The notes beneath the pieces were generated by a model. It worked only from the letters and a program-made list of their open reading frames with translations, did no database searches and was not told the origin of the DNA. From a virus, in IMG/VR virus record IMGVR_UViG_3300029858_000017: a stretch of 50,839 bases of DNA. One strand, written 5' to 3'. Below are positions 1 to 50,839 of the stretch, piece by piece. The stretch's first letter is position 1. Every line of letters begins with the position of its first letter. A program made the position numbers and the translations under genes.

Positions 1-99
1 ACGAGTACGACGAGTACGGGGAGCGAAGCCACCACCACCAGTTTTGCGAGGCGCTCAAGCTGCTGTTGTTATAGGTGCTGTTGCTGACGGCGTTCGCCG
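1..99. repeat. Terminal direct repeat copy 1 (identical to 50741..50839); circular-closure overlap
   Basis: Read directly: acgagtacgacgagtacggggagcgaagccaccaccacca...ttgctgacggcgttcgccg occurs at both window ends. It lies inside an ORF and partly inside VR1, so it is not a packaging terminus. Confidence 0.95.
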
Positions 100-673
100 T
101 GGGCTTGCAGAGGCGCGAACTGTTGTCGCTGCTGAACAAGGAAAGCCGCGAGCCCTCTGCGATGCTGTTTTCGCTGCCGAGGCCGACCTCCTGTTTGGAA
201 AGCAGGAAAACCTTATCGACGACGCTCTCCGAGCCGCCGCCGTCTACGGTCGCCTTTGCTACGGTGAGGGTGGTATCGAGGAGGGCGGCTTTCATCTGTG
301 CGGAAAAGTCGGTTAGGAATCCGCTCTGGCCGTCGTAGGGGTTGTAGCTGACGTTTCCGCTGCTTGGGGTTGCGTCTGCGCTGTGCTGCGCGACGTACCA
401 AGGCGAGCCGCTCTTATTCAGCCATTGCCGGATGTTGGAAAGGGCGTAGCGGTTGTTGCCGTAGCTTCTGCGGTTGCTGTCGCTGTTGCCGCTCTCTTTT
501 GCGTCGAATGCTGCAATCTTGAGGATGTTCGCCGCGATGAGGGTGACGGAGTTGGCCGGGTAGCCGCTGTGGTTCTTGTCGGCTACCTGCCAGATGATGG
601 GGCTCCCGTAGTAGGTCGTGCCGGTGTCCTTGACCTTCGCGCCTACGGGGAGGCTGCTGATTGCTTTAGACAT
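1..673 (-). CDS. DGR target protein 1, 5' portion (gene crosses the circular junction and continues 50740 down to 49710; 567 aa in total)
   Basis: ATG at 673-671 preceded by GAAAGGAG. I checked the minus-strand frame triplet by triplet from 673 to 2 and found no stop. It is in frame with tracked ORF 49710..50798 through the overlap (673+1031=1704 nt). Translation MSKAISSLPVGAKVKDTGTTYYGSPIIWQVADKN...NIRQWLNKSG...DKVFLLSKQEVGL...QNWWWWLRSP matches the family I recall as DUF6273. Confidence 0.85.
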   Translation of the reverse strand, partial: MSKAISSLPVGAKVKDTGTTYYGSPIIWQVADKNHSGYPANSVTLIAANILKIAAFDAKESGNSDSNRRSYGNNRYALSNIRQWLNKSGSPWYVAQHSADATPSSGNVSYNPYDGQSGFLTDFSAQMKAALLDTTLTVAKATVDGGGSESVVDKVFLLSKQEVGLGSENSIAEGSRLSLFSSDNSSRLCKPTANAVSNSTYNNSSLSASQNWWWWLRSPYSSYS

Positions 674-1805
674 GGTCTGTGTCGCTCCTTTCAAATATCG
701 AGTTGTAGAGACGGTCGTACTTCTCGATGAGGGCGCGGCAATCGCCGTGGGAAGCGTGTGCCCGCCAGCTTTGGTAGCTTTCGGTTATCTTCTCTCTGGT
801 GATGGCCCCGCTCTCGTACATGACCTTGTACTTGCGGAGTTTCCGCTTCATGCGCTCCCGGCTGGCCTTGCGCAGCTTTCTCACTACCTTGCCGGTGTCC
901 GTGAGGTAGCTGTGGAAGCCGAGGAAATCAAGCCCGTTCCGAAGCGGGAATATCTGCGTTTTCTGGTTCAGCTCAAGCCCTCTGGCGGCGAGGTGCTCCT
1001 CGATTTCCTTCCATGCTGCGCGTAGGGTGTCTTTGTCCTCGTGGATGAGGAAAAAGTCGTCCATGTAGCGGCCGTAGTAACGGATGCGGAGTTTCTCTTT
1101 CACGAGGTGGTCGAGCTTGTTGAGGTAAAGCAGCGCGTATATTTGGCTGCTCTGGTTCCCGATTGGGATGCCGACGTCTCCGGGCGTGCTGTCTATGATG
1201 GCGTCCGACAGGGCGAGGCTGCGCTCGTCATGAAGCAGCTCGCGGACATCCTGCTTTAGAACGTCGTGCCGGATGCTGGAAAAGTAGTGCCGCACGTCAG
1301 CCTTGAGTACCCATCCGTATGCGGAGCCGTGTCGCCGGTAATACTCCCGCATGAAGCCGGAAAGGCGGTCGAGGCCGAAATGGGTTCCTTTTCCTATCTG
1401 GCTGCCGTAATTGTCGAGAATGAACGGCCGCGAGAGGGCGTCGTAAAGGACGTTATCGCAAAAGGCGTGCTGCACGATTTTGTCCTTGAAACTGTTGGTC
1501 TGGATGAGGCGTTTCTTTGGCTCGAATACGTAAAATTCCCGGTAATCGCCGGGCTTGTAGGTGCCCTCGCTCAATTCGTTTTGCAGATAGGCGACGGCCT
1601 CGAGTGCGTTCAGCTCTATCTTGGCGACGGTGTTCTTCCATCGCTTTCCCCGGCGCGAGGCCCGGTAGGCTTTGTAAAGGTTCCCGAAGTCGCAAACCTC
1701 ATCGAAATTCTGCTTGCGGTCTTGCTCCACGTAAACCTCCCTCCAAACACCGCGATAGCCCCTGGGCCCTCTGGGTATGGTTGGGCTCCGGGGCGTCGGT
1801 GTCAT
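666..1805 (-). CDS. DGR reverse transcriptase
   Basis: Tracked ORF 666..2033 contains GIPIGNQSSQIYALLYL (DGR-type [I/L]GxxxSQ) and GRYMDDFFLIH (YxDD). The first 76 tracked codons are the TR read in frame, so the start is moved to ATG 1805 (MTPTPRSP...). Stop TAA 666-668 overlaps the target-1 start. Confidence 0.9.
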   Translation of the reverse strand: MTPTPRSPTIPRGPRGYRGVWREVYVEQDRKQNFDEVCDFGNLYKAYRASRRGKRWKNTVAKIELNALEAVAYLQNELSEGTYKPGDYREFYVFEPKKRLIQTNSFKDKIVQHAFCDNVLYDALSRPFILDNYGSQIGKGTHFGLDRLSGFMREYYRRHGSAYGWVLKADVRHYFSSIRHDVLKQDVRELLHDERSLALSDAIIDSTPGDVGIPIGNQSSQIYALLYLNKLDHLVKEKLRIRYYGRYMDDFFLIHEDKDTLRAAWKEIEEHLAARGLELNQKTQIFPLRNGLDFLGFHSYLTDTGKVVRKLRKASRERMKRKLRKYKVMYESGAITREKITESYQSWRAHASHGDCRALIEKYDRLYNSIFERSDTDHV

Positions 1806-2023
1806 GTGTTTGTCCTCGGCGTTGCGCCTTTGGACGGGATATTCATTCCTTTGATGGGTGGGCCTCTGCTTTCGGCCGCCGGAACGGCGGTCTACTTGGT
1901 CGCGGTGTTCCACCAGAGCCGGGCGCACGCCGTTGTTGCCGTTGTACGCGTTGTTGTTGTTGCTGCTCCCGTCCGTGTTCACGTTGCGCACGTTGTTCGA
2001 GTTCGACGAGTTCGGGGAGCGAA
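1806..2023 (-). ncRNA. Inferred DGR template RNA (TR plus TR-RT spacer)
   Basis: By analogy with characterised DGRs, TR and the downstream spacer are transcribed as the RT template/primer RNA. The ends are not determinable from sequence. Confidence 0.5.
1917..2023 (-). repeat. DGR template repeat (TR), 107 nt, 13 AAC codons, 31 adenines on the coding strand
   Basis: Aligns without gaps to 50661..50767 (VR1) and, over its first 81 nt, to 29943..30023 (VR2). Every mismatch is at a plus-strand T, which is a coding-strand A in TR. Coding sense: VRSPNSSNSNNVRNVNTDGSSNNNNAYNGNNGVRPA. Confidence 0.92.
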
Positions 2024-2078
2024 CAAAGCTCACAAAGGCTGGCGATGCACGTACAATGAATACCCCAATGAAACGAGG

Positions 2079-2480
2079 CTATCCCTTGGGGCTAAACCGC
2101 GTTGCATCCTTCTTTTTCCATGATGCGGTGAGGTTTTTAACGTCGAGTATCTTCTTCGTCCAGTCCTCGCACCTTCGTATGTCGATGTAGCCCCGTTCGA
2201 GGGCGATGTCGAGGAGGTTCAGAAGTACCTTGCATTTTGTGAGGGCCTCCTGCTGCAATCCGGCCCGCTTGGCCGCTTCCTCCGGGCTGCGCGGGTATAT
2301 CTCGTTGGCCTCTATAAGGTCTTGGAGAATGTCGAGTGCTGCCGTTTCCATCCGCTGCGAAAGTGTGAAACGGACGGATTTCGGAAACACTTTGTTGCTG
2401 GCCCAGAGGGTGTGGTTCAGCAGGTCTTTGGCTTTGGTTACGGCGGTGAGTTCGCCTGTTCGGTTGACCGTATCAAGCAC
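2079..2480 (-). CDS. avd: Accessory variability determinant (Avd)-like four-helix-bundle protein
   Basis: 133 aa, basic and helical. ...NKVFPKSVRFTLSQRMETAALDILQDLIEANE... fits the Avd / 23S-rRNA-IVS protein pattern. It sits immediately 5' of TR. GTG start. Confidence 0.75.
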   Translation of the reverse strand: MLDTVNRTGELTAVTKAKDLLNHTLWASNKVFPKSVRFTLSQRMETAALDILQDLIEANEIYPRSPEEAAKRAGLQQEALTKCKVLLNLLDIALERGYIDIRRCEDWTKKILDVKNLTASWKKKDATRFSPKG

Positions 2481-2725
2481 CTCCTGTTCACGAGTTCGTC
2501 GAGCTCCTCTTGGCTGATGCCCTCAACTTCGAGTACGCCCTTCTTGACGGCGATGGTAACGGGTCTGCCGTCTCGGGTCTGGCCGGTCAACGTGAGGCCG
2601 GGCCTGCAACAGGGGCAGGGCTCCCGCAGTTCCGCTATGATGTGCGGAATAAGGCAGGACGCGCCCTCGTCGCTGCAAAGCGCGACGGCCGTCACGCCTC
2701 GACGAGTTTCGTGTTCTTGTTCCAT
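2438..2725 (-). CDS. Hypothetical small Cys-rich protein between tail fibre and avd
   Basis: 95-aa ORF (CSDEGASC...PCPCC) overlapping both neighbours. No family recognised. Confidence 0.35.
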   Translation of the reverse strand: MEQEHETRRGVTAVALCSDEGASCLIPHIIAELREPCPCCRPGLTLTGQTRDGRPVTIAVKKGVLEVEGISQEELDELVNRRCLIRSTEQANSPP

Positions 2726-3390
2726 ACGCCGTCGATGATGGTGATGTTGGTAAGACCGGCGAAATCGGCGCTGAATGTGACGCCGCCGGGCATATCGCCA
2801 GAAACAAGGTCGTTAAGAAGGTCGATGTCTGCGCCGTGCTTGTCGAGAATGTCTTGCAGGCCGATGATGTCGCTGATGGTGTGGCTGTGGCCGATGAGGG
2901 CGTACTTGGCGAGGTCGTCCATCGTCGCGAATGCCTCGGGGTTGATGACAGCCGTAACGAGCGCAACGTTCTTGACGATGGTGACGATGGTGAAGGTTGC
3001 GAGTTTGTTTACGGCGTCCGCGTCGGCTCTTATCCACTCGGGGTGCTGCTGCAAGTAGAGGTAGGCGTAAAGGATGTCGCCCTCGTCCGGGTCTTCTGCC
3101 CAGAGGCCGAGCTCCGTGCAAGAGAAGCCCTGCGCGAGGTCGATGCTGCTGATTTGCACGACGACGGACGCCTCGCCGGTGGCGCTGCTGCTTACGGAGG
3201 CGATTAGGCCGTCTGTGACGTAGTTCCCCAGCTCCGTCATGCCCTCCGGGCTCTTGCCGCTCGGGATGCTGCCGTCGCCTGCTGTGACTTTGGTAAATTT
3301 GAGGGTGCCCTCGGATGCGAGCAGCTTGCCGATGAGGGCGTTGCCCTTCTCGGTCAAATAGCTGCCGTCGTTGAAGCTGATTTCTGGCAT
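2692..3390 (-). CDS. Tail fibre protein (tail-collar fibre N-terminal domain-like)
   Basis: MPEISFNDGSYLTEKGNALIGKLLASEGTLKFTKVTAGDG...ELGLWAEDPDEGDILYAY resembles the P2 gpH/DUF3751-type N-terminus. It is the last gene of the baseplate series. Confidence 0.7.
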   Translation of the reverse strand: MPEISFNDGSYLTEKGNALIGKLLASEGTLKFTKVTAGDGSIPSGKSPEGMTELGNYVTDGLIASVSSSATGEASVVVQISSIDLAQGFSCTELGLWAEDPDEGDILYAYLYLQQHPEWIRADADAVNKLATFTIVTIVKNVALVTAVINPEAFATMDDLAKYALIGHSHTISDIIGLQDILDKHGADIDLLNDLVSGDMPGGVTFSADFAGLTNITIIDGVWNKNTKLVEA

Positions 3391-3403
3391 TGTGCTTCCT
3401 CCT

Positions 3404-4087
3404 TTAGTTGGCTGGTTTTATGGTTACGGCCGTCAGGTAGACGGCTGCGGTGCCCGTGTAGAGCGTTGCCGTTGCTCTGCGGTTGACGTTCGGCGGCCGG
3501 GCCGTGATGCGGGAAGACGTCGCAAAGCCGGTGTTGATGTAGACGGTCTGCGTGTAGCTCTTGCGGCTGCGCAGGAAAAGTCTCATGCCGACACCTGCTG
3601 CGACTATACGCTTCATAACTGCGGCGATGAGGTCTGCCGTGTCAATCTGTGCGGCCGTTAGGATGTCCTCGTCAACGTATATCCAGACTTTGGCCGGGAA
3701 CACCTCGTCGAGGTCAACCTGTCCGGGCTGGATGTCGAAAAGGGTTGCGGCCGCGCTGATGACGGTCTCGATGTCGCCGCCGGAAAGCAGGCTTATCATC
3801 TTGACCTTGATGAGGAGCCGGTAGAACTTGTCCGAGGCTCCATCCCGCGCTACACCGAAGTTCTCGCCGTATCGGTCGAGCACGCTGCCCTGCGCGTTGT
3901 CGAGGTCGTCCCACAGCAGGATTTTGTCTGCCTGCTCATGCACGAGCTCAAGGCCCCACGAGAAGGTGTCAAAGAGGCGGCCAATGTTCGTCTCGAGCGG
4001 CAGGCTGTTGTGGGCGTTTCGGACGTCTGCGCGGTTGTATGCGCCCGTAAGAAGGTCGAGCATCTTTCCGAGGTATCCGTGGCTCAT
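3404..4087 (-). CDS. Baseplate/tail-fibre attachment protein (XkdU / Mu gp48, DUF2313-like)
   Basis: Position directly after baseplate J; size and sequence style; 4-nt overlap with the upstream gene. Confidence 0.55.
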   Translation of the reverse strand: MSHGYLGKMLDLLTGAYNRADVRNAHNSLPLETNIGRLFDTFSWGLELVHEQADKILLWDDLDNAQGSVLDRYGENFGVARDGASDKFYRLLIKVKMISLLSGGDIETVISAAATLFDIQPGQVDLDEVFPAKVWIYVDEDILTAAQIDTADLIAAVMKRIVAAGVGMRLFLRSRKSYTQTVYINTGFATSSRITARPPNVNRRATATLYTGTAAVYLTAVTIKPAN

Positions 4088-5271
4088 GTGATGCTCACCT
4101 TGCTTTCTGCCGTGACCGCTTTCTGGCGGCTGCTTATCTCAATGTTGTCGTAGTTGTAGGCGCTGCCGTCGCTGCTGATTTTGAGTTCGAAGTCGAGGAC
4201 GCCGGGAACGGTGTAAATGACGGCCGGTAGCCGGTTGTAGTAGATGTCCTCGCCGATTGTGGTGCCGCCGTTGGCGTCGCTGCCGATGTAGTCGATGATT
4301 GCTGCCTTGATGAGGGCCTTTCCGTTGGTCGGGAACTTGTCTTCATCGGTTACGAGGTCTGTAATCTTCACCCACACGTCAACGAGCGTGGGCCGCGAGA
4401 ATTTGATGGTGTAGGTCGCTCCGCTGTCGGAGAGGACGGAGACGCTCTTGCCGCCGTGGGTCTGAATGCCTGCGGCCTTGCGCCGGAATATCTGCTTTGC
4501 AATGTCTCCATCGAGGCCGCCGTAAACGACTGCCTCGATGCTGTGTGCCGGGAGGCCGTCGCTGTCTTCCTCGTCCGTGTCGTTCTCGTAGACGATGACG
4601 GCATAGACGCCCTCTACATTTTGGAGAATCTCGCCCCGGATGGCGTCGGCGTTGACGCCGCCTGCGTAGTCAACGGATTTGTAGTAGCGGTCTCTGTAAT
4701 CCTCGTCTGTCTCCCGGGCGCGGCCGCCCTCAAACGCCGCGGGATTGCTGACGTTTGTGATTCCTTCCGGGATGCCGGGGTTTACGATGGTCGTGATGGT
4801 CTCCTTCTCTACGTTGCCGTCTGCGCCTGCTACGGTGGCCTGCGCCGGTAGCGTTACGGTGCCGTCGCTGCCTATCTCTCCGGCCGCCACAACGACGAAC
4901 TGATAGCCCGCTACGGTGGCCGCGAGCCAGCCTGCCGGTACGATGGTGCCCGGTGTGCCCTTGACGGTGATGTAGCCGCTGGCCTTTTGCTCCGAAAGGA
5001 GGCGAAGGCCGATGGCCTTGCCGAGGTTGTATAGGCTGGTTCCCACGGCCGTATCGACGAAACGGCTGTTATAGACGTCCTCGATTGTGGAAAAGAGCAT
5101 ATTCAGAATCCATGCGTAAATCCGTAGGAACAGGCCGATGGGCGAGCGGACGGTGAGGTTGGCCTTGGTGCCGAAAAGCTCTCGCGCCTTGTATTCGAGG
5201 GCGTCGAGGAGTTCTGTGTACGTTGGCCGTCGGAAGCCTCTTTCCGTGAGGCCCCATTCGTTGCTGCTCAT
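4084..5271 (-). CDS. Baseplate J-like protein (XkdT / Mu gp47 / P2 gpJ family)
   Basis: 395 aa. ...GYITVKGTPGTIVPAGW...AAFEGGRARETDEDYRDRY... is typical of the baseplate J family. Confidence 0.8.
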   Translation of the reverse strand: MSSNEWGLTERGFRRPTYTELLDALEYKARELFGTKANLTVRSPIGLFLRIYAWILNMLFSTIEDVYNSRFVDTAVGTSLYNLGKAIGLRLLSEQKASGYITVKGTPGTIVPAGWLAATVAGYQFVVVAAGEIGSDGTVTLPAQATVAGADGNVEKETITTIVNPGIPEGITNVSNPAAFEGGRARETDEDYRDRYYKSVDYAGGVNADAIRGEILQNVEGVYAVIVYENDTDEEDSDGLPAHSIEAVVYGGLDGDIAKQIFRRKAAGIQTHGGKSVSVLSDSGATYTIKFSRPTLVDVWVKITDLVTDEDKFPTNGKALIKAAIIDYIGSDANGGTTIGEDIYYNRLPAVIYTVPGVLDFELKISSDGSAYNYDNIEISSRQKAVTAESKVSIT

Positions 5272-5643
5272 TTATGCGCTCACCTCCATGCTGATTTTCT
5301 GGCCGCTGTAAAGGGTTGCCGCGAGCTCGACGGAAAGGCTGCGGCCGCTCCTGTCCGTCTCAAGGCTATCCACCTGCGCGACGTCGGTTTCTTGGAATAC
5401 TGCTTCGCGGATTACCTCGTCAACCTCGTCCGGCTCGAGCTCTGCGTTCCTCCGGCCTAGAACGCGCTCGTACTCGGTGCCGTGTGTCTCGTCGAGGGGG
5501 AATGTTCCCTTCCACGTGAGGAGCGTAAGACGGACGCATTGCGCCGTGGTGTCGTCTCCGTAGATGTATTCCATGTCGCCGTTCTCGTCGATGGGAATGT
5601 CCATGGTCTCGGGGTCTATGCGTAGTGTCTTGTTTCTTTCCAT
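5272..5643 (-). CDS. Baseplate wedge protein, gp25/gpW-like (XkdS, DUF2634-like)
   Basis: 123 aa immediately upstream of baseplate J. ...AQCVRLTLLTWKGTFPLDETHG... pattern. Confidence 0.6.
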   Translation of the reverse strand: MERNKTLRIDPETMDIPIDENGDMEYIYGDDTTAQCVRLTLLTWKGTFPLDETHGTEYERVLGRRNAELEPDEVDEVIREAVFQETDVAQVDSLETDRSGRSLSVELAATLYSGQKISMEVSA

Positions 5644-5654
5644 GGCTCTCCTCC

Positions 5655-6254
5655 TTATGTCGGCATCGGCCCGCCGCCGTGGGTGTGGTTCTTTAGGCTT
5701 ATTCCTCCTGCTACGACGTCGCCCGTTGCCGTGATGTCGCCGGTCACGGTGAGATTGCCGGTGATTTCAACGTCGCCGAGGATGACGATGCCGGAATCCG
5801 TGACGGCGAGGTAGATGCCGCCGTCGTCGGTGCCGATTGCAAAGCCGTCCGGCAGGCCGGAAACACCGCCGCCTCCCGTGGCGATGCCGCCCATGAATAC
5901 GGCGTCGCTGCTCGAGTGGTTCCGCTCGGTGTTTGGCTCGCCCTCTGCGCCTCCGGCTACGGCGTTGTCGATGTCATGGTCGCAGAAGACGACGCTGCCG
6001 ACGTCACCGGGCTTGTAATTCACGCGCATGGCAAAGCCGCCGCCGCGCTGGCAGGAGACGGGCACGCTCAAGATGGGCGGTTGGCTCTCGTAGCTGCCTT
6101 GGTCGAGGCGCTTGGAAATAGGCTGAACATCGACGGTCATCTTTGCCGGGTCGTATGCGATAATTTTTACAAGCTGCGCGACGTTGATGGCCGCGCTGGC
6201 CGTCTTCTGCTGCTGCTTCTCGTAGTCGTATTGCCTGCTGTTCTTCATGCTCAT
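5655..6254 (-). CDS. Baseplate central spike/hub protein (gpV / Mu gp45-like)
   Basis: 199 aa, Gly-rich beta-repeat C-terminus ...VEITGNLTVTGDITATGDVVAGGISLKNHTHGG; synteny. Confidence 0.55.
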   Translation of the reverse strand: MSMKNSRQYDYEKQQQKTASAAINVAQLVKIIAYDPAKMTVDVQPISKRLDQGSYESQPPILSVPVSCQRGGGFAMRVNYKPGDVGSVVFCDHDIDNAVAGGAEGEPNTERNHSSSDAVFMGGIATGGGGVSGLPDGFAIGTDDGGIYLAVTDSGIVILGDVEITGNLTVTGDITATGDVVAGGISLKNHTHGGGPMPT

Positions 6255-7096
6255 GCCGGTTTCACCTCGATTTCTGTCTTCCAGTCGCCGCTTTGGCTGC
6301 CTCTGTGGGTTCCTCGGACTATCATAAACCGGCCGTTAAGGTCGGAAGACTGGATTTTGATGAGGTCGGCCGGGCCGAGGTGGTAGTTGAGGAGGCTGCT
6401 GCGCTTCTTCGTCGCCGCCTCCTCATTCTTGGTGTCGGTGCTTTTCTTGGTGTCGAGCCCCGTCTCGATATGTATTTCTTCCCGCTCCTCGTCGCTGCGG
6501 AGGAGGCCGGTGCTCGGGGATAGCAGGTAGCCCTTGTTGACGCCGTCTGCGGGGTTGTTGATGATGATTTTCCCGCAACGGATTAGGAAGCGGCTCTTGC
6601 AGTCGCTTACAACGATTTCCGTCAAGACGTCCTTGAGCTTGCCTTTGCAAACCTTCCCCCGGGGGTATTCCTTGTCGATTGCGAGGTCGAAGGTGCCTAT
6701 CTCGATGCCGAAGATGTTGAGAAGGTCTTGGAGCATCGCCTTGGCCTTGATGCCCTTCTGGTAGGTCTTGTTTATCTGGGCCGTGAGCCACTCGTCAAGC
6801 GCCTCCGTCGCGGTTATCTTCGTACACCAGTCCGTGGTGCTGCGCTTGTGCGAAAGTCCGCTGACCTGCCCCACAAAGATGACGCCCATATCGCCCTCGT
6901 AGCCTGCGTTGATGATGACGGGGTCGCCCTTGCGGATGCCGTTGCGCGTGGCTGCCGAAAGGTTGTAGGCGTTGATGGTCGCCGTGGCGAGCTCCTCGCT
7001 GTCTTCAAAAGGCACTTCAAAATCGAATGTGAGGTCGTCAAGGGAATACTTCTTCGCTCCGATTTGCAGGGTTGCTGTCCTAATCCAAAATTCCAT
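6251..7096 (-). CDS. XkdQ/YqbQ-like tail/baseplate hub protein (gpD-like)
   Basis: 281 aa, synteny after the tape measure; MEFWIRTATLQIGAKKYSLDDLTFDFEVPF... N-terminus. Confidence 0.6.
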   Translation of the reverse strand: MEFWIRTATLQIGAKKYSLDDLTFDFEVPFEDSEELATATINAYNLSAATRNGIRKGDPVIINAGYEGDMGVIFVGQVSGLSHKRSTTDWCTKITATEALDEWLTAQINKTYQKGIKAKAMLQDLLNIFGIEIGTFDLAIDKEYPRGKVCKGKLKDVLTEIVVSDCKSRFLIRCGKIIINNPADGVNKGYLLSPSTGLLRSDEEREEIHIETGLDTKKSTDTKNEEAATKKRSSLLNYHLGPADLIKIQSSDLNGRFMIVRGTHRGSQSGDWKTEIEVKPA

Positions 7097-7453
7097 CTAC
7101 GCCGTCCTCCTTTCATGGAGGTAGAGCTTTACCTGCTGACCGAAGTTCTCGAGCGTGACCTCGCTGATGCCTTCCTCGGTCAGGCATTGTGGGATGATGA
7201 CGGGTAGCGGGAATCGCTCGTCTTCGACGCTGCCAAACAGGGGCCTCCCGTATCTCACGATGTCGCCGTACACGAGGGGCTCGCCGTCGCTGCTTTCGAG
7301 GTCGGCGGTGAAGAACTTGCCGACTTCGTTGTACTTGATGGTAAACATATAGGTCTTGTCCGTCAGTTTCACGGAGAAGGTGTAGGGAACTTTGGCCGTG
7401 TCGATGTCGATGTACTCAACCTCCTGCCCGAGGTCTATAAGCTGTAACGCCAT
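7097..7453 (-). CDS. Hypothetical tail/baseplate protein
   Basis: 118-aa ORF abutting the XkdQ-like gene; no family recognised. Confidence 0.5.
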   Translation of the reverse strand: MALQLIDLGQEVEYIDIDTAKVPYTFSVKLTDKTYMFTIKYNEVGKFFTADLESSDGEPLVYGDIVRYGRPLFGSVEDERFPLPVIIPQCLTEEGISEVTLENFGQQVKLYLHERRTA

Positions 7454-8090
7454 GCCTATCCCTCCCTTGCTTTGCTACCGCGACGGCGCGGGCGGTGCCG
7501 TTGTAGCTCGGCGTCGCCCTGCTGGCGGGCCCGCTGCTGCTGGCGGGCTTGCTGTCGTAGCTGCTGACGTACTGCGCGTATGCGCTGCTGGAAATGGTGC
7601 TCGATACGGTGGTCTTGAGGCCGTCCGAGCTTGTCTTCTTGGTCTGTGTCGGGTTGCTGCTGCTTTTGCCGCTGTCCTGCTGCGTCATTGTCGGGTAGGC
7701 CCCAACCTCGACAACCTCGGCCGACGATATGTTGACCTGCTGAAAGGTTGCTTTGAAGGAGCAGCCTTTCGCGTTCTTGGCCGAGGCGTCGAAAGTGAGG
7801 CTTGTTATGACGAGGTTGCTGACGCGGTTCCTGCCGGTGTAGGATACAATGTCGCGGCGCTCCCTCATGTTCTGTAGCGTGCTCTGGGCCTGCTGGCCGC
7901 CGATGATGACGCCGGAAATTGTGAATTTCATCGGGTCTTTGATGACGTGGTCGTTGATGTCGCCGCCACTCTCAATGGGGTTGGAGGTGACTTTGCTCGA
8001 CATCGAGACTTGCTCCGTCTGGATATTGCCGACAGTCTCCGGCTCGAATCTGACCGTGCCGCACTTGCGGCCCGTGATGGTGTATGCCAT
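7416..8090 (-). CDS. Tail protein following tape measure (Dit-like N-terminal motif)
   Basis: ...SKVTSNPIESGGDINDHVIKDPMKFTISGVI... motif; Ser/Thr-rich C-terminus; synteny. Confidence 0.5.
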   Translation of the reverse strand: MAYTITGRKCGTVRFEPETVGNIQTEQVSMSSKVTSNPIESGGDINDHVIKDPMKFTISGVIIGGQQAQSTLQNMRERRDIVSYTGRNRVSNLVITSLTFDASAKNAKGCSFKATFQQVNISSAEVVEVGAYPTMTQQDSGKSSSNPTQTKKTSSDGLKTTVSSTISSSAYAQYVSSYDSKPASSSGPASRATPSYNGTARAVAVAKQGRDRHGVTAYRPRAGG

Positions 8091-8105
8091 AGCTCCGTCA
8101 CCTCC

Positions 8106-10592: not shown

Positions 10593-10613
10593 AATACCAC
10601 CTCCTTATACGAC

Positions 10614-10645
10614 GAAATAGCCGCCCCGGGTAGGGCGGCTATTTC
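10614..10645 (-). other. Perfect 13-bp stem / 6-nt loop hairpin spanning the stop codon of the chaperone extension, just upstream of the tape-measure RBS
   Basis: gaaatagccgccc cgggta gggcggctatttc read directly; no clean U-tract on the minus strand. Confidence 0.6.
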
Positions 10646-10926
10646 TTATTTGGGTTCCATTCGTCTTGCCACATGAGGCGGGCCTCGACGGCCTCGCGGT
10701 ATTCCGCGAAGTCCATGTTTTTGAGCTCTGCGTAGGTAAGGCCGTTTCCGGCGAATACCATACACCAGAACTCTCTATGCCGCCGGGCCCGGCGCTGCGC
10801 TGTGGCGATGCTTGCTTCACTCTCTAAGAAAGGTCTCGATGGCCTTGATGAGCGCCTCCGGGCCCTTGAGGTCTTCCTGCTCGTCAAAGTATGCCATGCC
10901 CTGATTCCGAACCTCTGCGGGGGCAA
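10639..10926 (-). CDS. +1-frame ORF overlapping the tail assembly chaperone 3' end (candidate frameshift extension, gpT-like)
   Basis: The distal 59 aa (ESEASIATAQ...NGLTYAELKNMDFAEYREAVEARLMWQDEWNPNKK) look protein-like. The proximal part is an R/S-rich overlap. Position between tube and tape measure. Confidence 0.5.
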   Translation of the reverse strand: MPPQRFGIRAWHTLTSRKTSRARRRSSRPSRPFLESEASIATAQRRARRHREFWCMVFAGNGLTYAELKNMDFAEYREAVEARLMWQDEWNPNKK

Positions 10927-11149: not shown

Positions 11150-11162
11150 CTATATCCCCGCC

Positions 11163-11570: not shown

Positions 11571-11592
11571 TGTCTGTTCCTCCTTTCATCGG

Positions 11593-29585: not shown

Positions 29586-30449
29586 TTACTCGTCGTCATC
29601 TTCTACAATGGCTGCGAGGTGTTCGAGCTTGCGCTGTTCTGCTTCGCTGTTGTCTCCGAAGATGACGTCGAGTTGGTTGAGCATGATGCTGACGTCGGCG
29701 CGTTCCTCTTCGACGGATGCGATGATGGCGTCGTAGTCGCCCTGATTGAAGTCCTCGTGACGGACGTACTTGAGCAGGGATTTTGTGAGCTCGCTCATTT
29801 CCTCCACGGCCATGAGGATTTGTGCCCTTTCTCCGAACTTGACGACGGCCGCCTCGTAGAGGGCCATTTCCCGCTGCTCCGGCGTTTGTTCGTCCTCGCC
29901 GCTGTCATCGACAGATACCGAGATTTCAGATTTCAGATACAAAGCCGGGCGCACGCCGTAGTGGCCGTAGTACGCGTTGTTGCCGTTGCTGCTCCCGTCC
30001 GAGCTCACGTAGCGCACGAGGGAATTGTAGTCGTCAAGTCCACTGTATGGGGTGGCTGTCCACCACCATTTTCCGATGGGCGGGAGGATGTCACGGTGCC
30101 TGCGGTAGTCCTCCATCGTTAGCAGGCCTACCTTGACGCTGTCCTTCCCGTACTTTGGGAGGCCGTCGTCCGCTGTGAGGTCGATGACGTACTCGCAGAT
30201 GTTCCCGGCTCCGAGCTCGTCTTCCAGCTTGCGCAGGAACTCGCCGTTGAGGTAGGCGCGAAGGGTGGAAGCTGCGAAATCGCACTTGTTTCCTTCGTCG
30301 AATGCCCTGTTTTCGGTGATGTCGGTGGAAACGACGAAGGTGCGGAGGGGGAGCCCTTGGCTGCTCCTGCTGTGGTCGAGCACCGTCCACTGGATGCCTG
30401 CGCCGTAAAAGGTTTCGCCGCGCTTGAGGTCTTTGAGCTGTTTTTTCAT
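29586..30449 (-). CDS. DGR target protein 2: DUF6273-like variable domain fused to a C-terminal MazG-like (all-alpha NTP pyrophosphohydrolase-like) domain
   Basis: 287 aa. The N-terminal part is paralogous to target 1 (GIQWTVLD...STLRAYLNGEF...VGLLTMEDY...WWWTATPYS...GVRPALYL). It contains VR2. The C-terminus has ...FGERAQILMAVEEMSELTKSLLKYVR...VEEERADVSIMLNQLDVIFG... Confidence 0.85.
   Translation of the reverse strand: MKKQLKDLKRGETFYGAGIQWTVLDHSRSSQGLPLRTFVVSTDITENRAFDEGNKCDFAASTLRAYLNGEFLRKLEDELGAGNICEYVIDLTADDGLPKYGKDSVKVGLLTMEDYRRHRDILPPIGKWWWTATPYSGLDDYNSLVRYVSSDGSSNGNNAYYGHYGVRPALYLKSEISVSVDDSGEDEQTPEQREMALYEAAVVKFGERAQILMAVEEMSELTKSLLKYVRHEDFNQGDYDAIIASVEEERADVSIMLNQLDVIFGDNSEAEQRKLEHLAAIVEDDDE
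29943..30023 (-). repeat. DGR variable repeat 2 (VR2), 81 nt aligned to TR 1917..1997
   Basis: 12 mismatches to TR, all at TR coding-strand adenines. Homology stops abruptly 5' (coding sense) of 30023. Confidence 0.85.
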
Positions 30450-31100: not shown

Positions 31101-31791
31101 CGTCGTTTGTCTCCTCTCTGGCCTCAAGGGCCTTTGTCTGCGCCTTCTCGAGCCGGTCGGAAAGGGAATCGAGGCTGTATCTGCCGTTGTAGTAGTTCTG
31201 CTGCTCCTGCCATTGGCGGTTTACTCCCTCAATGAGGCGTCGGCTGCCGTCGCTCTGCGCGGCGCTGACAGCTTCGATTCTTTCTCGGAGGGCGGGCGGC
31301 AGCATCGCCTGTTTCCGCTGCCGCTCGACCTTCTCCTCGTAGGCTTGCAGAAATGCAACGCGGTCGAGGCCCGCCTTTGAGGCGCTCCCTCTGGCGTATG
31401 CGACGTGCATCGCGTAAAGCTGCCCGTATCCGATGGCGTCAATGGTCTCCGCGATGGCTGCCGGAAGCTCGCGGTGGTAGTCCCTGTGGCAATACTCTCC
31501 GGCGACGGAAAGGTACTTCGCCACGACGGCCCATGCCTCGTCGGGCGGTATGATGTCCGGGTGCTGTATGCGCGTCATAAGCTCCCGTATCTCTGCGATG
31601 GAGGGCGGCCATTTCGACGTGCTGATGTGCTGCTTAACGGCCAGCCCTACGAGGCCCGCGTTGTCCTCGCTGAAAATGTCGGCCCAGACAGCTACCATGC
31701 TGCGGATGTGGTTCTCGTCCTTGAACTTGTCGAAGTTCGGGTAGGCCATTGTTATAATGCCTATGAGCTTGATGGTCTCCTTTTGGGTCAC
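31093..31791 (-). CDS. Helicase loader-like protein (G39P-like N-terminal domain)
   Basis: ...MAYPNFDKFKDENHIRSMVAVWADIFSEDNAGLVGLAVKQHISTSKWPPSIAEI... GTG 31791 overlaps the upstream stop (GTGA); ATG 31749 is an alternative. Confidence 0.5.
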   Translation of the reverse strand: MTQKETIKLIGIITMAYPNFDKFKDENHIRSMVAVWADIFSEDNAGLVGLAVKQHISTSKWPPSIAEIRELMTRIQHPDIIPPDEAWAVVAKYLSVAGEYCHRDYHRELPAAIAETIDAIGYGQLYAMHVAYARGSASKAGLDRVAFLQAYEEKVERQRKQAMLPPALRERIEAVSAAQSDGSRRLIEGVNRQWQEQQNYYNGRYSLDSLSDRLEKAQTKALEAREETNDDE

Positions 31792-32813
31792 CAGTCGTCG
31801 CCTCCTTCCTCGTCTAACATCTTCCCGAGAACCTCGAGGGTGTTCGGTTTCCCTCCGGCCCTTGGCCGGGCCTGCGGTGCTACCTCCTCCGGGCCGCTGT
31901 ACTGGTTCTCCCATTCGCGGCCGTTGAGCCACGTTGCCGGGTGCGGGGTGTATCGTATCTCGCGGAAACGGCTGTCGAATGCCTTTGCGGTTTCTACGGC
32001 GTTAATAATCCGCTCCGCGAGTTCCTCGTCCGGCTCTATCTTGGCCCACGCCTTTTCTGCGTCTCCTATGCTGACCTTTCGGGGGTACACGGCCCAAAAG
32101 GCATTGAAGCGTGTTTCCTGCGTTTTTGTCAGCGTAGAAGGCTTTCGCCTGCGCGGCTTTGGCGCTGCGTCCTCGAGAAAATCAGGTTCAGCGTTGCCGG
32201 TGCCGTCGGGCTCCGGCTCGGCCGCTCCCCCAATGGGGGGTAAGGGGGGTATATCTTCTTCCTGTTTACTGTTACTGCTTACTGTATACTGTTTACTGTT
32301 TACTGGTTGCTGTAAGGGTTTCGGAAGGGTTTCCGAAAGGGTTTCGGAAGGGTTTCCGCAACCGTTCCGAAAGGGTTTCCGAAACAGTTTCGGTAAGGCT
32401 TCCAGCAAGGGTTTCAAATACGGCTTCCCGGCCTCGTTTGCGAGCCCTTCGAGGTGTGCGTAGACCGTGTGAAAGAGGTCGCTACGGGGCAGGCCCTCGA
32501 GCTTTGTAAGCGCTCCTTTTACTTGGTTCGGGTTCTCGATGGGGTTATAGCGCAGAAAATTCTTGAGAAGAATCATTCGCGTGTCTTCCTCGTAGATGAC
32601 TATTCCGCTTCCGAAAAGCTCTCGCCATGCGTGTGAAAACCGTTTTTCCGGGAGTTTCGTGTCTTCGAGGGCGTATGCCTTTGGTAGCTGGTAGCATCCG
32701 AGTACGTTCCTGTGCTTGGTCGTGAGTAGGTAAATCAAGAGGTATCGGGCGTCCGGCGACAGCGTGAGGACTTTCTCATCGTCCCAGAAACGGGCGTCTA
32801 TTTTGGAATACAA
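31788..32813 (-). CDS. Replisome organizer / replication initiator (DnaD-like phage family)
   Basis: MYSKIDARFWDDEKVLTLSPDARYLLIYLLTTKHRNVLGCYQLP... is the typical phage replisome-organizer N-terminus. The central linker carries DNA iterons. Confidence 0.65.
   Translation of the reverse strand: MYSKIDARFWDDEKVLTLSPDARYLLIYLLTTKHRNVLGCYQLPKAYALEDTKLPEKRFSHAWRELFGSGIVIYEEDTRMILLKNFLRYNPIENPNQVKGALTKLEGLPRSDLFHTVYAHLEGLANEAGKPYLKPLLEALPKLFRKPFRNGCGNPSETLSETLPKPLQQPVNSKQYTVSSNSKQEEDIPPLPPIGGAAEPEPDGTGNAEPDFLEDAAPKPRRRKPSTLTKTQETRFNAFWAVYPRKVSIGDAEKAWAKIEPDEELAERIINAVETAKAFDSRFREIRYTPHPATWLNGREWENQYSGPEEVAPQARPRAGGKPNTLEVLGKMLDEEGGDDW
32265..32313. repeat. Seven tandem heptamers (T/A)T(A/G)CTGN (consensus TTACTGT)
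   Basis: tttactg ttactgc ttactgt atactgt ttactgt ttactgg ttgctgt read directly. Confidence 0.85.
32314..32418. repeat. About nine 11-12-bp iterons AAGGGTTTC(C/G)G(A); candidate origin of replication inside the organizer gene
   Basis: aagggtttcgg aagggtttccga aagggtttcgg aagggtttccgc aaccgttccga aagggtttccga aacagtttcggt aaggcttcc...aagggtttcaaa. The units are read in different codon phases. Confidence 0.7.
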
Positions 32814-45939: not shown

Positions 45940-46737
45940 TTACGCGGGCGTTCCGCTCTTTGTGGTGATGTAGGTCGGGAAGCCTGCGGCCTTGAGCTTG
46001 GCCGCGCAGGCGGTCGCGTTTGCTTTCTGGGCGAATGCGCCTACCTGCACCTTGTAGTAGCCGTCGCTCTGTACGAGGTAGGTGTCGAAGCCTGCGGCCT
46101 TGACCTTGTCCCTCTGGGTTTTGGCGTTGGCAAGGTTCTTGAATGCACCGGTCTGCACGCGGTAGAGCGTCTTGGCCTGCTCCTCCGGCTCCGGCTTGGC
46201 GGTGTCCGTCGCGCCGAGGCGCTTGTTGACCTCGGCGGCGATTTCTCCGTGCCTGCTGTAGAGGTAGGTGCCCGGGCAGCTCTTGTTCGCGTAGTCGCGG
46301 TGGACGGTCATGTTGCAGCCGTTGAGGTGGTTCATGCGCTCGTTCTTGTTCGTAGACCAGACGAGCTTTTTGATGCCGTTCCGCTTGCAGATGTCGGTCA
46401 CGAGGTCGAGCATCGCGGCGTAGGCTTTCTCGGTAACGGCGTAGGGCTCTTTGTTGTCGCTGGCGACTTCGATTGTGATGGCCCTGTGGTCGTTCACTCC
46501 GCTCGAGGTACACCACGAGCGGTCGCCCTCGTCCACGCAGAGGCCGATGCTGCCGTCGTAGCCGACGACGTAGTTGCAGGACGCTTTCTTGCTTGTCGGC
46601 TGAAATACCTCGCAGCCGCGCTTTGCCGTTACCTGCGCAACGAAACAATGGATGGTGATGGTGTCGATTTTGTGATTACGCGGGCTGTTTTTGTTCGGGC
46701 TGATGAGGGTATAGTTCGCGAGAGGGCTGTTGCTCAT
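45940..46737 (-). CDS. Endolysin: N-acetylmuramoyl-L-alanine amidase (Amidase_2) with C-terminal SPOR repeats
   Basis: ...IDTITIHCFV...CNYVVGYDGSIGLCVDEGDRSW...HRDYANKSCPG... then YRVQTGAFKNLANAKTQRDKVKAAGFDTYLV and YKVQVGAFAQKANATACAAKLKAAGFPTYI. Confidence 0.85.
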   Translation of the reverse strand: MSNSPLANYTLISPNKNSPRNHKIDTITIHCFVAQVTAKRGCEVFQPTSKKASCNYVVGYDGSIGLCVDEGDRSWCTSSGVNDHRAITIEVASDNKEPYAVTEKAYAAMLDLVTDICKRNGIKKLVWSTNKNERMNHLNGCNMTVHRDYANKSCPGTYLYSRHGEIAAEVNKRLGATDTAKPEPEEQAKTLYRVQTGAFKNLANAKTQRDKVKAAGFDTYLVQSDGYYKVQVGAFAQKANATACAAKLKAAGFPTYITTKSGTPA

Positions 46738-49709: not shown

Positions 49710-50839
49710 TTACACGTAAGAACCGGACGGCGGCTGGCACCAGATTTCGTCGTAGCCGGTGGTCTTCGTGATTTTGACCTTGACGCCTACGGCCCACTTC
49801 GCGGCCGTCTTGCTGGCGTTCGTGAACAGGTGCTTGAGGCCGGGGGTTGCGGTCTCCCACGTCGGGGATGCGTCCATTGCGTTGTTGCTGACGGAAAGGA
49901 CTACGGCGCTGTCGGCTGCGTAGTAGCGGAGCGAGACGAGGATTTTCTGTGCCTTTGCGTCGGTCTCGATGGGGCCGACGATGAACTCGATGCCGCTGAC
50001 GCTGCGCGTGAATGTGGTGGTGCGGGTCGCGCTGTTCCCGGCGCTGTCGGTGACTGTGACCTTCATCGTGTGCTGGCCGTCCGCGAGGCCTGCGAACTGC
50101 GCGGCCGTGAGGGCGAATGTGTAGGTCTGATTTCTGACGGCGTCCTCGATGGTGTCAACCTCTACGTCGTCGAGGCTCTTTACTACGGTGAGCTCGTCGG
50201 TGGTGTCCGCGTCGTTGACCGTGAAGGAAACGGAGGGCGGGCTCGTGACGGTGCCGAGGTTGGTGTCGCTGCCGGAAACGGTCGGGTCTACATTATGGAC
50301 GACAGTTCTGCTCGGGCCCGTGAGGTAGCTGCTGTATGCGCCTAGGTTGTCCTTCGCCCGGACACGCCATTGTACCGTGTTCGCGCTGCTGCCTACGCCG
50401 GTGTCCGTGTACGTGAGTGCGCTGCCCGCGTAAATCTGCGTGAACGAGCCGCTATTGATTTTGCGCTCGAGCTCGTAGCTGACTGCGCCTCCTTCGGGGT
50501 CGGTGCTGCCTGCCCACGTGATGACAGCGCCTTTCCCGCTGCGGATGGTCTCGGGTACCGTGATGCTGGGCGGGGTCGTCGGGGCTTGGTTCCAGACGAT
50601 GGTGTAGGCCCCGTCGCTGTCTGCGCTGTCAGATACCAAGATTCCAGAGGACAGATTCAAAGCCGGGCGCACGCCGACGTAGCCGTAGTACGCGCCGCTG
50701 TAGCTGCTGCTCCCGTCCGCGTGCACGACGCGCACGTAGGACGAGTACGACGAGTACGGGGAGCGAAGCCACCACCACCAGTTTTGCGAGGCGCTCAAGC
50801 TGCTGTTGTTATAGGTGCTGTTGCTGACGGCGTTCGCCG
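49710..50839 (-). CDS. DGR target protein 1, 3' portion (VR1, then FN3/Ig-like domains and C-terminal domain)
   Basis: The tracked ORF 49710..50798 'M' is an internal TTG. The frame stays open to the window end and joins 1..673. Downstream of VR1: ...PSITVPETIRSGKGAVITWAGSTDPEGGAVSYELERKINSGSFTQIYAG...VQWRVRAKDNLGAYS (FN3-like). Confidence 0.85.
   Translation of the reverse strand, partial: ANAVSNSTYNNSSLSASQNWWWWLRSPYSSYSSYVRVVHADGSSSYSGAYYGYVGVRPALNLSSGILVSDSADSDGAYTIVWNQAPTTPPSITVPETIRSGKGAVITWAGSTDPEGGAVSYELERKINSGSFTQIYAGSALTYTDTGVGSSANTVQWRVRAKDNLGAYSSYLTGPSRTVVHNVDPTVSGSDTNLGTVTSPPSVSFTVNDADTTDELTVVKSLDDVEVDTIEDAVRNQTYTFALTAAQFAGLADGQHTMKVTVTDSAGNSATRTTTFTRSVSGIEFIVGPIETDAKAQKILVSLRYYAADSAVVLSVSNNAMDASPTWETATPGLKHLFTNASKTAAKWAVGVKVKITKTTGYDEIWCQPPSGSYV
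50661..50767 (-). repeat. DGR variable repeat 1 (VR1), 107 nt
   Basis: Gapless alignment to TR 1917..2023 with 18 mismatches, all at TR coding-strand adenines. Encodes LRSPYSSYSSYVRVVHADGSSSYSGAYYGYVGVRPA versus TR-encoded VRSPNSSNSNNVRNVNTDGSSNNNNAYNGNNGVRPA. Confidence 0.92.
50741..50839. repeat. Terminal direct repeat copy 2 (identical to 1..99)
   Basis: See copy 1. Confidence 0.95.

Follow-up and report, generated by a model that had tools for sequence, protein, structure and literature searches.

The window analyzed here, i.e., the whole stretch of 50,839 nt, is in all likelihood the complete circular genome of a phage of the myovirus type that probably infects gut Oscillospiraceae, and it carries a complete two-target DGR. 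Read on the minus strand, the cassette runs in the order avd, TR, spacer, RT, target 1. Target 2 and its variable repeat VR2 lie about 28 kb from this cassette, in the replication and recombination module. The first-pass annotation had proposed a complete DGR with the target downstream of the RT, and indeed avd, TR, spacer, a DGR-clade RT and a target in that position were all present.

Genome Organization and Circularity

The last 99 nt of the window (50741..50839, no strand assigned) are an exact copy of positions 1-99 and were treated as an assembly overlap. Since the end of the window repeats its opening, the contig is circular with a true length of 50,740 nt, and target 1 and VR1 therefore span the window ends. 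Genes follow each other in the succession terminase, portal, capsid, sheath, tape measure, baseplate and tail fibre, then the DGR, and then lysis. The cassette was placed earlier at the distal end of the tail-fibre module, which agrees with its position here, flanked by tail-fibre/baseplate genes on one side and by lysis genes on the other. The phage probably infects a Flavonifractor-like genus of Oscillospiraceae, different from the host of the Faecalibacterium phages. Megablast of positions 1-12000 against 50,697 phage records (INPHARED) gave zero nucleotide-level matches, and relatives were recovered at the protein level or in IMG/VR only. A promoter and terminator scan of positions 1-3500 returned counts at chance level, and none could be called around avd and TR.

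Template and Variable Repeats

The TR (1917..2023, minus strand) is the 107-nt AAC-rich repeat seen previously between avd and the RT; it contains 31 adenines and exactly 13 in-frame AAC codons, and matches both variable repeats without gaps. VR1 (intact copy at 50661..50767, minus strand) encodes residues 216-251 of target 1. Positions 50741-50767 within it are the same sequence as 1-27, and only 27 nt of VR1 fall inside the span 1-2480 covered by the first-pass annotation. VR2 (29943..30023, minus strand) is 81 nt long, encodes residues 143-169 of target 2 and corresponds to the 3′ part of the TR (1997..1917), the match ending abruptly 5′ of 30023. Genome-wide, the repeat occurs in three copies only, and no third VR was found.

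The alignment of TR with VR, suggested earlier as a check, gave mismatches at TR adenines exclusively, 18/18 in VR1 and 12/12 in VR2, with zero at non-adenines. For VR1, the chance of such an adenine-only pattern is (31/107)^18 = 2e-10. The figure of 15^13 protein variants derived from the AAC codons is correct as arithmetic (1.9e15), but it is a theoretical ceiling; five more single-adenine codons would lift the theoretical number to about 2e18.

Reverse Transcriptase and Avd

The DGR reverse transcriptase (666..1730, minus strand; 354 aa from GTG 1730) is encoded by an intact ORF, catalytic motifs included. The YMDD motif and IGNQSSQ box reported for it were recovered as RYMDD and IPIGNQSSQ in the ORF ending at 666. 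Its top PDB match was 8ub7_A, the BPP-1 DGR RT, with 3.3e-41 and 145 bits, while a group II maturase reached 3.5e-11 and 46 bits, and retron-type RTs 29 bits. The enzyme thus groups with the DGR clade, as expected from the earlier reading, and not with retrons, group II introns or Abi. RT relatives are encoded in 160 phage records, Bordetella and Faecalibacterium phages among them.

The NCBIfam library gave no DGR RT match for this protein, and its best models were group_II_RT_mat (108 bits, cut-off 300) and Drt3a (62 bits, cut-off 200), with retron St85 at 38 bits (cut-off 235). Taken by themselves, the two best models would favor a retron, group II intron or Abi/DRT defence RT lying beside a coincidental repeat. 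We regard such an origin as having next to no probability. The NCBIfam scores stay far under the family cut-offs of 200-550 bits, and the BPP-1 DGR RT is ahead of other solved RTs by 100 bits. An Rfam scan of 1600-2600 matched no family, intron and retron RNAs included, and TR/VR mismatches confined to adenines, as found here at two loci, are specific for DGRs.

The span 666..1805 assigned to the RT at first was retained at its stop and revised at its start. The ORF stays open back to ATG 1805, where relatives show in-frame stops, whereas GGAGGGAGG sits 5 nt ahead of GTG 1730. As judged from these sequence features, GTG 1730 is probably the start rather than ATG 1805.

The basic ORF directly upstream, pointed out in the same annotation, is the accessory gene avd (2079..2480, minus strand, read from 2480 to 2079; 133 aa, GTG start, pI 9.3), and its product matches Avd-family profiles. 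The match to NCBIfam DivGenRetAVD (E 2.6e-11, 43.7 bits against a cut-off of 80) took in profile positions 3-104 of 104, and that to Pfam bAvd had E 4.8e-7, under the gathering score. PDB sequences gave no match to a solved Avd, either with the single query or with a 13-sequence profile, so that the NCBIfam and Pfam profiles are the basis for calling it Avd. The avd orthologues keep the same position in relatives.

Spacer RNA and 3′ Ends of the Repeats

The 186 nt from the TR to the RT start (1731..1916, minus strand) comprise an IMH*-like TR flank and a structured RNA. In 16 relatives, 18 pairs in 6 helices were 93% paired, compared with 28-57% in slid controls, and double-sided changes were found in 31 cells vs 12.6 ± 2.4 in shuffles. 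As judged from this covariation, the spacer is a conserved, covarying structured RNA. A long-range pairing suggested by RNAalifold, between alignment columns 10-13 and 202-205, was probably spurious and was removed before the pairs were counted.

The G+C-rich 3′ end GGCGTGCGCCCGGCT is common to the TR, VR1 and VR2. Directly after it, both VR1 and VR2 continue with TTTGnATCTG, while the TR continues with CTGGTGGAA. This difference between VR-specific and TR-specific flanks is an asymmetry of the IMH/IMH* type, from which we infer a role as homing signal. Folding energies 3′ of VR1 and VR2 were no better than those of shuffles (z = +1.4 and -0.6, respectively) when a BPP-1-style hairpin was looked for.

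Target 1

Target 1 is encoded on the minus strand in two parts, which are joined across the circular junction. The 5′ part (1..673, with ATG at 673..671) runs from codon 1 through codon 224 to the first base of codon 225, and the 3′ part (49710..50740) holds the rest of the 567 aa, with the Ig-like domains and the stop. The 567-aa ORF described earlier does carry a variable repeat, VR1, but it is not intact within the linear window and requires circularisation (673..1, then 50740..49710). The overlap of the RT stop TAA (668..666) with the ATG of target 1 was correctly noted and is contained in ATGTCTAA. It amounts to 8 nt and resembles those seen in nd4, nd12, and Lelie. An AAGGAG of its own precedes the ATG of target 1 by 11 nt. 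Translational coupling from the RT to target 1 may exist, as far as can be inferred from the sequence.

Pfam assigned DUF6273 to aa 41-255 (E 4.8e-39) and the Ig-like domain Big_13 to aa 382-469 of target 1. The protein matched phrog_10993, “Hoc-like head decoration,” at 8e-199 over aa 1-560, and was 45% identical over its full length to the nd12 tentaclin (tgt1). The name “tentaclins” was given to targets with a 5′-proximal VR just past the RT (PMC10743442). By sequence similarity, target 1 is such a tentaclin or Hoc-like protein, with an N-terminal DUF6273 domain containing VR1, followed by Ig-like domains. The residues encoded by VR1 are 216-251 of 567, so that the repeat is located mid-protein and not at the C-terminus. 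Both VR1 and VR2 are situated at the C-terminal end of the Pfam domain DUF6273, described as a C-lectin fold in published models (PMC10743442). The VR domains of both targets are accordingly predicted to adopt a C-lectin fold, on the basis of the Pfam assignment and these models.

Target 2 and Its MazG-Like Domain

Target 2 (29586..30449, minus strand) has 287 aa and consists of a DUF6273 (C-lectin-type) part followed by a C-terminal MazG-like domain. The first-pass annotation was silent on this remote target, and it mentioned neither the structure of the spacer nor the likely start of the RT. Neighboring genes encode a Holliday-junction resolvase and a DnaD-like loader. Residues 1-207 matched phrog_9958 at 8.8e-58, and residues 193-283 matched phrog_2245, “NTP pyrophosphohydrolase,” at 2e-18 to 1.8e-17. 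We recovered 697 homologues. Full-length homologues form at least 120 clusters at 90% identity, and a prophage copy is present in the cultured Pseudoflavonifractor sp. Marseille-P3106.

The C-terminal domain, at about aa 190-287 (29589..29882, minus strand), resembles an all-alpha NTP-pyrophosphohydrolase domain of the MazG type in AF2 and Foldseek analyses. AF2 modeled it as four helices with pLDDT 93.7, while the model of full-length target 2, from an alignment of 49 sequences with 67-93% identity, had pLDDT 37 and was unusable. The top 50 PDB matches in Foldseek were all of the MazG type (DCTPP1, iMazG, RS21-C6, DR2231, and MazG), with probabilities of 0.75-0.99 and query TM-scores of 0.40-0.57, at E-values of only 0.08-0.4. 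A profile of the domain matched iMazG 2q73 with E 0.036, the EEMSEL and EERADV motifs being aligned to the iMazG motifs. Within these motifs E216, E217, E220, E248, R250, and A251 are invariant in the 49 full-length homologues, E249 and D252 (of EERAD) are nearly invariant, and both motifs are kept in the stand-alone homologues as well. Pfam returned no significant family for the domain, with weak matches to DUF2443 in some homologues. DUF3310, found at the N-terminus of nd12 tgt2, was considered as kin of the MazG-like domain and was ruled out (hhalign probability 0.2%). Judged by the predicted structure and the motifs together, the domain has a MazG-like fold with a metal-binding EExxE...ExxD motif, and it is a predicted NTP-PPase. 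A small second target can thus bear a conserved MazG-like enzyme domain within the replication module.

Two readings of the function of target 2 were compared. Firstly, it could be a virion receptor-binding protein like Mtd, with the MazG-like four-helix domain serving only as an oligomerisation or attachment module, a reading to which we give less than even confidence. MazG-type domains are oligomeric helical bundles, which would suit such a module, and the small target of Lelie is devoid of a MazG-like domain. Target 2 is also homologous to tgt2 of nd12 (48% identity) and of nd4 (41% identity), both proposed to be Mtd-like receptor-binding proteins of the virion (PMC10743442). The location of the gene speaks against a virion protein, as its neighbors function in replication and recombination and the tail genes are about 28 kb off; in nd4, nd12, and Lelie, too, a long distance separates the small target from the tail genes. 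In addition, the EExxE...ExxD residues are invariant or nearly so among homologues 66-97% identical, and this conservation argues for retained catalysis over a mere scaffold.

Secondly, target 2 may be an intracellular, non-structural enzyme, in which a DGR-reprogrammable binding domain is joined to an active MazG-like NTP pyrophosphohydrolase and which is expressed with the replication genes. It would then retarget an enzyme or decoy against variable host factors, e.g., defence proteins. We put this forward tentatively, again with less than even confidence. If it holds, hypermutation would serve host attachment through target 1 and retargeting of an enzyme or decoy through target 2, the latter being a phage-encoded and widespread “antibody-enzyme” fusion. 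A non-structural target 2 would extend the role of phage DGRs past receptor binding to intracellular phage-host conflict, and such a role is testable in a cultured lysogen with a homologue.

Apparent Activity and Proposed Mechanism

A contig from IMG/VR (L006) is 99.5% identical to this genome over 9.1 kb and has an identical TR. Fifteen of the 45 differences between the two are located inside the 107-nt VR1, all at TR-adenine positions, which makes the density of differences in VR1 about 40x that elsewhere (0.33% of positions). For target 2, 31 close homologues showed high entropy (2.3-3.3 bits) at AAC-templated residues only, and single 90%-identity clusters of homologues contained 1,500-3,900 distinct sequences each. 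By this comparison between genomes, the DGR is apparently active. The same TR/VR pattern could also be a fossil of past activity, with diversification ended, and the relatives Lelie and CP11 indeed showed no read-level VR variation in culture (PMC11792537). We find this improbable here, given that the RT ORF and its catalytic motifs are intact, that the pairing in the spacer is conserved, and that the TR is identical in the L006 contig despite the VR1 differences at adenine sites.

By homology to BPP-1, a complex of RT and Avd would bind the RNA spanning TR and spacer by means of the spacer structure. Priming of cDNA synthesis would take place from the spacer, and copying would proceed through the TR, with bases misincorporated at random opposite adenines. 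This cDNA would replace either VR1 or VR2, the 3′ junction being fixed by the common G+C-rich end and the 5′ junction being set at the point where homology ends, which we propose as the reason why VR2 is shorter. In this way, information would flow in one direction only, from a constant TR, and as many as 13 Asn codons (11 in VR2) would be rewritten in the binding surfaces of two different proteins.

Comparison with Known Systems

The order avd-TR-RT-target was stated to differ from that of BPP-1 (target-avd-TR-RT), which proved correct, whereas the novelty implied by this did not hold. Among 80 relatives retrieved from IMG/VR (RTs 52-100% identical), 62 had the same layout, the VR being located some 0.7 kb inside the post-RT gene, and so did the cultured phages FP_Brigit, FP_Toutatis, and Lelie as well as nd4 and nd12. 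In most of the 62, TR/VR mismatches were all at TR adenines, and the others had at most 2 elsewhere. The order avd-TR-RT-target belongs to the “B1” architectures (avd-TR-RT) described by Wu et al., and surveys list avd-TR-RT cores with variable position of the target (PMC5758913). The departure from BPP-1 and the 8-nt overlap could be read as a new DGR architecture, with a translationally coupled post-RT target, working unlike known DGRs. With the layout so frequent and the position of the target already known to vary, we hold this to be very improbable. In FP_Brigit and FP_Toutatis, moreover, the RT and target are separated by gaps of 19-23 nt, so that the overlap is not required. The gene order is normal for this phage clade, and the only unusual part is the distant target 2 with its binding domain and MazG-like domain. 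As a representative of a gut-phage DGR clade already described, the element is clean, complete and apparently active, and it leaves the knowledge of DGR architecture unchanged. It does provide a reference set of parts, comprising the TR, the covariation-backed spacer RNA, a corrected RT start and IMH-like ends common to two VRs.

Closest in design are nd12 and nd4 (Baykov et al., 2023, PMC10743442; OR777946, OR777945), with RTs 45-53% identical to the RT described here. They have the same order of avd, TR, RT and target 1, an overlapped RT stop, and a tentaclin as target 1, with an N-terminal DUF6273/C-lectin domain containing the VR and subsequent Ig-like domains. In both, another VR, shorter than the first, lies 10-14 kb away in the gene of a small DUF6273 protein, surrounded by non-structural genes. 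The tgt2 of nd12 has an N-terminal DUF3310 and that of nd4 only a short helical tail, whereas target 2 here has a complete C-terminal MazG-like domain. In FP_Brigit and FP_Toutatis (Cornuault, 2018, PMC5883640) and in Lelie (PMC11792537) the RT is about 47% identical, with the TR upstream of it and the VR in the gene directly downstream. The target of FP_Brigit is annotated as Hoc-like and has its Ig-like part in common with target 1, although FP_Brigit and FP_Toutatis have a short gap in place of the overlap. Two DUF6273 targets, one large and one small, are encoded by Lelie; the gene of the small one (215 aa) is located at a distance of about 14 kb, and the protein is without a MazG-like domain.

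The mechanistic prototype is the BPP-1 DGR (mtd-avd-TR-brt). It agrees with the present system in full-length RT homology, an Avd-family accessory protein, adenine-specific differences between TR and VR, a G+C-rich common 3′ end with VR- and TR-specific flanks, and a structured spacer past the TR. It differs in that its target is upstream of avd with the VR at the Mtd C-terminus, while here the target is post-RT and the VR mid-protein; besides, the phage described here has two targets, and no VR-flanking hairpin was detected. As regards target 2 only, there is a further likeness to the DGR fusions of cellular conflict systems (e.g., PMC10907252), in that a hypervariable C-lectin-type domain is combined with a conserved enzymatic domain. 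Those fusions, whose partners are effector or signalling domains, are bacterial and chromosomal, while the one described here is phage-encoded and has a small, predicted MazG-like partner.

Genome form and organization of the DGR cassette

A repeat comparison of both ends showed that positions 50741-50839 of the window are an exact 99-nt copy of positions 1-99. This identifies the window as a circular assembly with a true length of 50,740 bp, and the duplication is probably an assembly overlap with k = 99. All genes annotated here, including every component of the diversity-generating retroelement (DGR), are carried on the minus strand, where the order from 5' to 3' is terminase, portal, protease, major capsid, tail sheath, tape measure, baseplate wedge and tail fibre. 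The tail-fibre gene (2692..3390) is the last of the tail module and is followed by a Cys-rich ORF of 95 aa (2438-2725; phrog_21058, function unknown), the accessory gene avd (2480..2079), the template repeat (TR, 2023..1917), a spacer, the reverse transcriptase (RT) gene and the 567-aa ORF of target 1. The latter runs from ATG 673..671 to position 1 and continues from 50740 to the stop at 49710; both target 1 and its variable repeat VR1 cross the window ends, and hence are split in window coordinates. Two unknown ORFs and holin-like ORFs separate target 1 from the endolysin gene (45940..46737). The first-pass annotation was correct in placing the cassette at the distal end of the tail module, with the tail fibre preceding it and the lysis genes coming after.

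The basic upstream ORF proposed as avd encodes 133 aa with a pI of 9.3 and was confirmed as such, matching NCBIfam DivGenRetAVD over the whole profile (E 2.6e-11) and Pfam bAvd (E 4.8e-7), with both scores below the curated cut-offs. The last 43 nt of the 95-aa ORF overlap the GTG start of avd, and avd may therefore be translated by coupling to this upstream ORF.

Reverse transcriptase

Both motifs reported for the RT are present in the ORF, within IPIGNQSSQ and RYMDD. Its best solved relative is the DGR RT of Bordetella phage BPP-1, the prototype system (8ub7_A; 3.3e-41, 145 bits, aligned residues 33-361), while group II maturase scored 46 bits and retron-type RTs 29 bits, which places it with DGR RTs rather than with the retron, group II or Abi clades. 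The scores with NCBIfam models for group II, DRT, retron and Abi were all far under the respective cut-offs.

In relatives with 57-84% identical RTs, in-frame stops precede the conserved NF(D/E) region, and the RTs start 3-8 codons before it; the position corresponding to ATG 1805 of the window is non-coding there. In addition, GGAGGGAGG stands 5 nt ahead of GTG 1730. For these reasons the RT is probably a protein of 354 aa starting at GTG 1730 (1730..666), which leaves a spacer of probably 186 nt (1916..1731) between TR and the RT start.

Template repeat, VR1 and target 1

The repeat is exactly 107 nt, ungapped, and contains 13 AAC codons in the frame of the target, as originally described, with 31 adenines in TR. 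The number of 15^13 protein variants calculated from these codons stands as a theoretical ceiling only. All 18 differences between TR and VR1 are at TR adenines (chance (31/107)^18 = 2e-10), and no mismatch falls on another base. The interpretation of the element as a DGR is thus right, both by the RT being nearest to that of BPP-1 and by the position of the TR/VR1 mismatches. The span first reported, 1-2480, holds only 27 nt of VR1, and the intact repeat is found outside it, at 50767..50661 (minus). It codes for residues 216-251 of 567 and so is situated mid-protein, not C-terminally. Target 1 as a whole matches phrog_10993 (8e-199). The RT stop (TAA 668..666) does overlap the target ATG, as ATGTCTAA, and the two genes may be translationally coupled.

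A second target in the replication module

A repeat search of the window revealed a third TR copy at about 29,940-30,049. This copy, VR2, was refined to 30023..29943 and matches TR 1997..1917 over 81 nt; the 12 mismatches all fall on adenines, and the similarity breaks off abruptly at the 5' end of VR2. The repeat is in frame with a 287-aa ORF, target 2 (30449..29586, minus), of which it encodes residues 143-169. The neighbours of target 2 include a Holliday-junction resolvase, a DnaD-like loader/replication initiator and a 1267-aa SbcCD-like ORF. Target 2 lies outside the coordinates covered by the first-pass annotation and is, in our opinion, the most interesting lead.

Two families, phrog_9958 and Pfam DUF6273, match the first 207 residues, and phrog_2245, annotated "nucleoside triphosphate pyrophosphohydrolase", matches residues 193-283 (1.8e-17). 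The C-terminal domain was modelled as a four-helix bundle (pLDDT 93.7), for which the top 50 Foldseek matches in PDB were all of MazG type (DCTPP1, iMazG, RS21-C6, DR2231, YpjD, MazG), with probability 0.75-0.99, TM-score up to 0.57 and weak E-values of 0.08-0.4. The motifs EEMSEL and EERADV align to the iMazG motifs and are invariant or nearly so among the examined homologues. Stand-alone versions of the MazG-like domain (100-115 aa) occur in Clostridia phages and prophages. The fusion with DUF6273 is common: the best 120 matches listed are nearly all full-length and belong to separate 90%-identity clusters. Copies were found in Oscillospiraceae and Flavonifractor MAGs, as well as in a 414-kb scaffold of the cultured Pseudoflavonifractor sp. 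Marseille-P3106. A locus of this strain (LT827125.1 343551-356456), part of a related prophage, encodes a 302-aa homologue with 48% identity, in which C-lectin and MazG-like domains are arranged as in target 2 and EEMSEL/EERADV are intact, and the cultured organism is a possible experimental system. Judged from sequence and model, target 2, encoded in the replication module, is predicted to combine the binding domain that is diversified with a conserved enzyme domain of MazG type. This raises the possibility that a non-structural protein acting inside the cell is also diversified by the DGR.

Several other features of this region were recorded. Just upstream of target 2 is a 215-aa ORF (30480-31127, minus; phrog_30550) with weak endolysin matches. 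In some relatives it is called together with target 2 as a single 425-aa protein (Pfam PF07486 + PF19789), which is either a read-through/fusion variant or a gene-calling artefact. Directly downstream of target 2 is a 280-aa ORF (28555-29397, minus; phrog_2045, function unknown) with a CxxxCxxC-like motif near its N-terminus (GCRHGCEYCYA). The DnaD-like/replication-initiator gene (31788..32813, minus) contains two adjoining tandem arrays at 32258-32415. One consists of approximately 7.6 copies of CTGTTTA, and the other repeats a 12-nt unit approximately 8.8 times (AAGGGTTTCCGA; 23-nt double unit, score 118). Both resemble origin iterons located inside the initiator gene. The 1267-aa ORF (32860-36663, minus) opens with the SbcD/Mre11-type phosphoesterase motif MKILHTADTHLGD, continues as a long coiled-coil ATPase and, from its translation alone, looks like a fusion protein of the SbcCD/Mre11-Rad50 kind.

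Putative homing signals and spacer RNA

TR, VR1 and VR2 have the G+C-rich 3' end GGCGTGCGCCCGGCT in common. Directly after it, both VRs carry TTTGnATCTG whereas TR carries CTGGTGGAA, a difference that reads as an asymmetry of the IMH/IMH* kind. In BPP-1, IMH/IMH* asymmetry makes homing one-way. Folding of the flanks downstream of VR1 and VR2 gave no significant hairpin.

The spacer was aligned among 16 relatives, including the Faecalibacterium phages FP_Brigit and FP_Toutatis. The alignment holds 18 base pairs in 6 helices, 93% paired, while controls with pair partners slid by 1-3 columns were 28-57% paired. Changes on both sides of a pair were found in 31 cells, against 12.6 +/- 2.4 in column shuffles; one example, just 3' of TR, is GGTGG/CCACC to GATGG/CCATC. 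By this alignment the spacer is a conserved structured RNA, and an Rfam search of the region matched no family. By analogy with BPP-1, the spacer RNA would be the element bound by the RT-Avd complex and used for priming.

Natural variation

Over 9.1 kb, an IMG/VR contig (L006) shares 99.5% identity with the window. The two TRs are identical, and 15 of the 45 differences lie in the 107-nt VR1, all 15 at positions templated by TR adenines. In 31 homologues of target 2, each at least 88% identical, column entropy reached 2.3-3.3 bits only at the AAC-templated residues 144, 147, 149, 155-158, 161, 163 and 164, and the remaining columns, including the MazG-like domain, were essentially invariant. 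Single 90%-identity clusters of target 2 comprised from 1,533 to 3,915 distinct sequences. These differences between genomes are evidence for DGR activity in nature.

Comparison with known DGRs

The gene order avd-TR-RT-target was first regarded as novel, which is wrong. A search with the RT retrieved 80 IMG/VR loci (52-100% identity), and 62 of them have TR upstream of RT and VR some 0.7 kb inside the gene that follows it; TR/VR mismatches are confined to TR adenines in most of the 62, and the others have at most 2 elsewhere. The same layout is found in FP_Brigit, FP_Toutatis and Lelie, all Faecalibacterium phages, and in the gut phages nd4 and nd12. Wu et al. (PMC5758913) described 48 architectures, including avd-TR-RT cores with varied target arrangements. 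We found no description of a MazG-like domain in a DGR target; the top-ranked paper from a full-text literature search for DGR together with MazG makes no such connection. Baykov et al. (2023; PMC10743442) named targets with N-terminal C-lectin plus Ig "tentaclins", and reported DGRs with a tentaclin right after RT and a small DUF6273 second target with a shorter VR; in that description the small targets of nd4 and nd12 consist of one globular domain flanked by short helices. The first target of nd12 is 45% identical to target 1 over its full length. The second targets of nd12 and nd4 are 48% and 41% identical to target 2, respectively, in the C-lectin part, and the small target of Lelie is 31% identical. 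The small targets of nd4, nd12 and Lelie likewise lie 10-14 kb from RT, amid non-structural genes. The element studied here belongs to this published kind of two-target gut-phage DGR.
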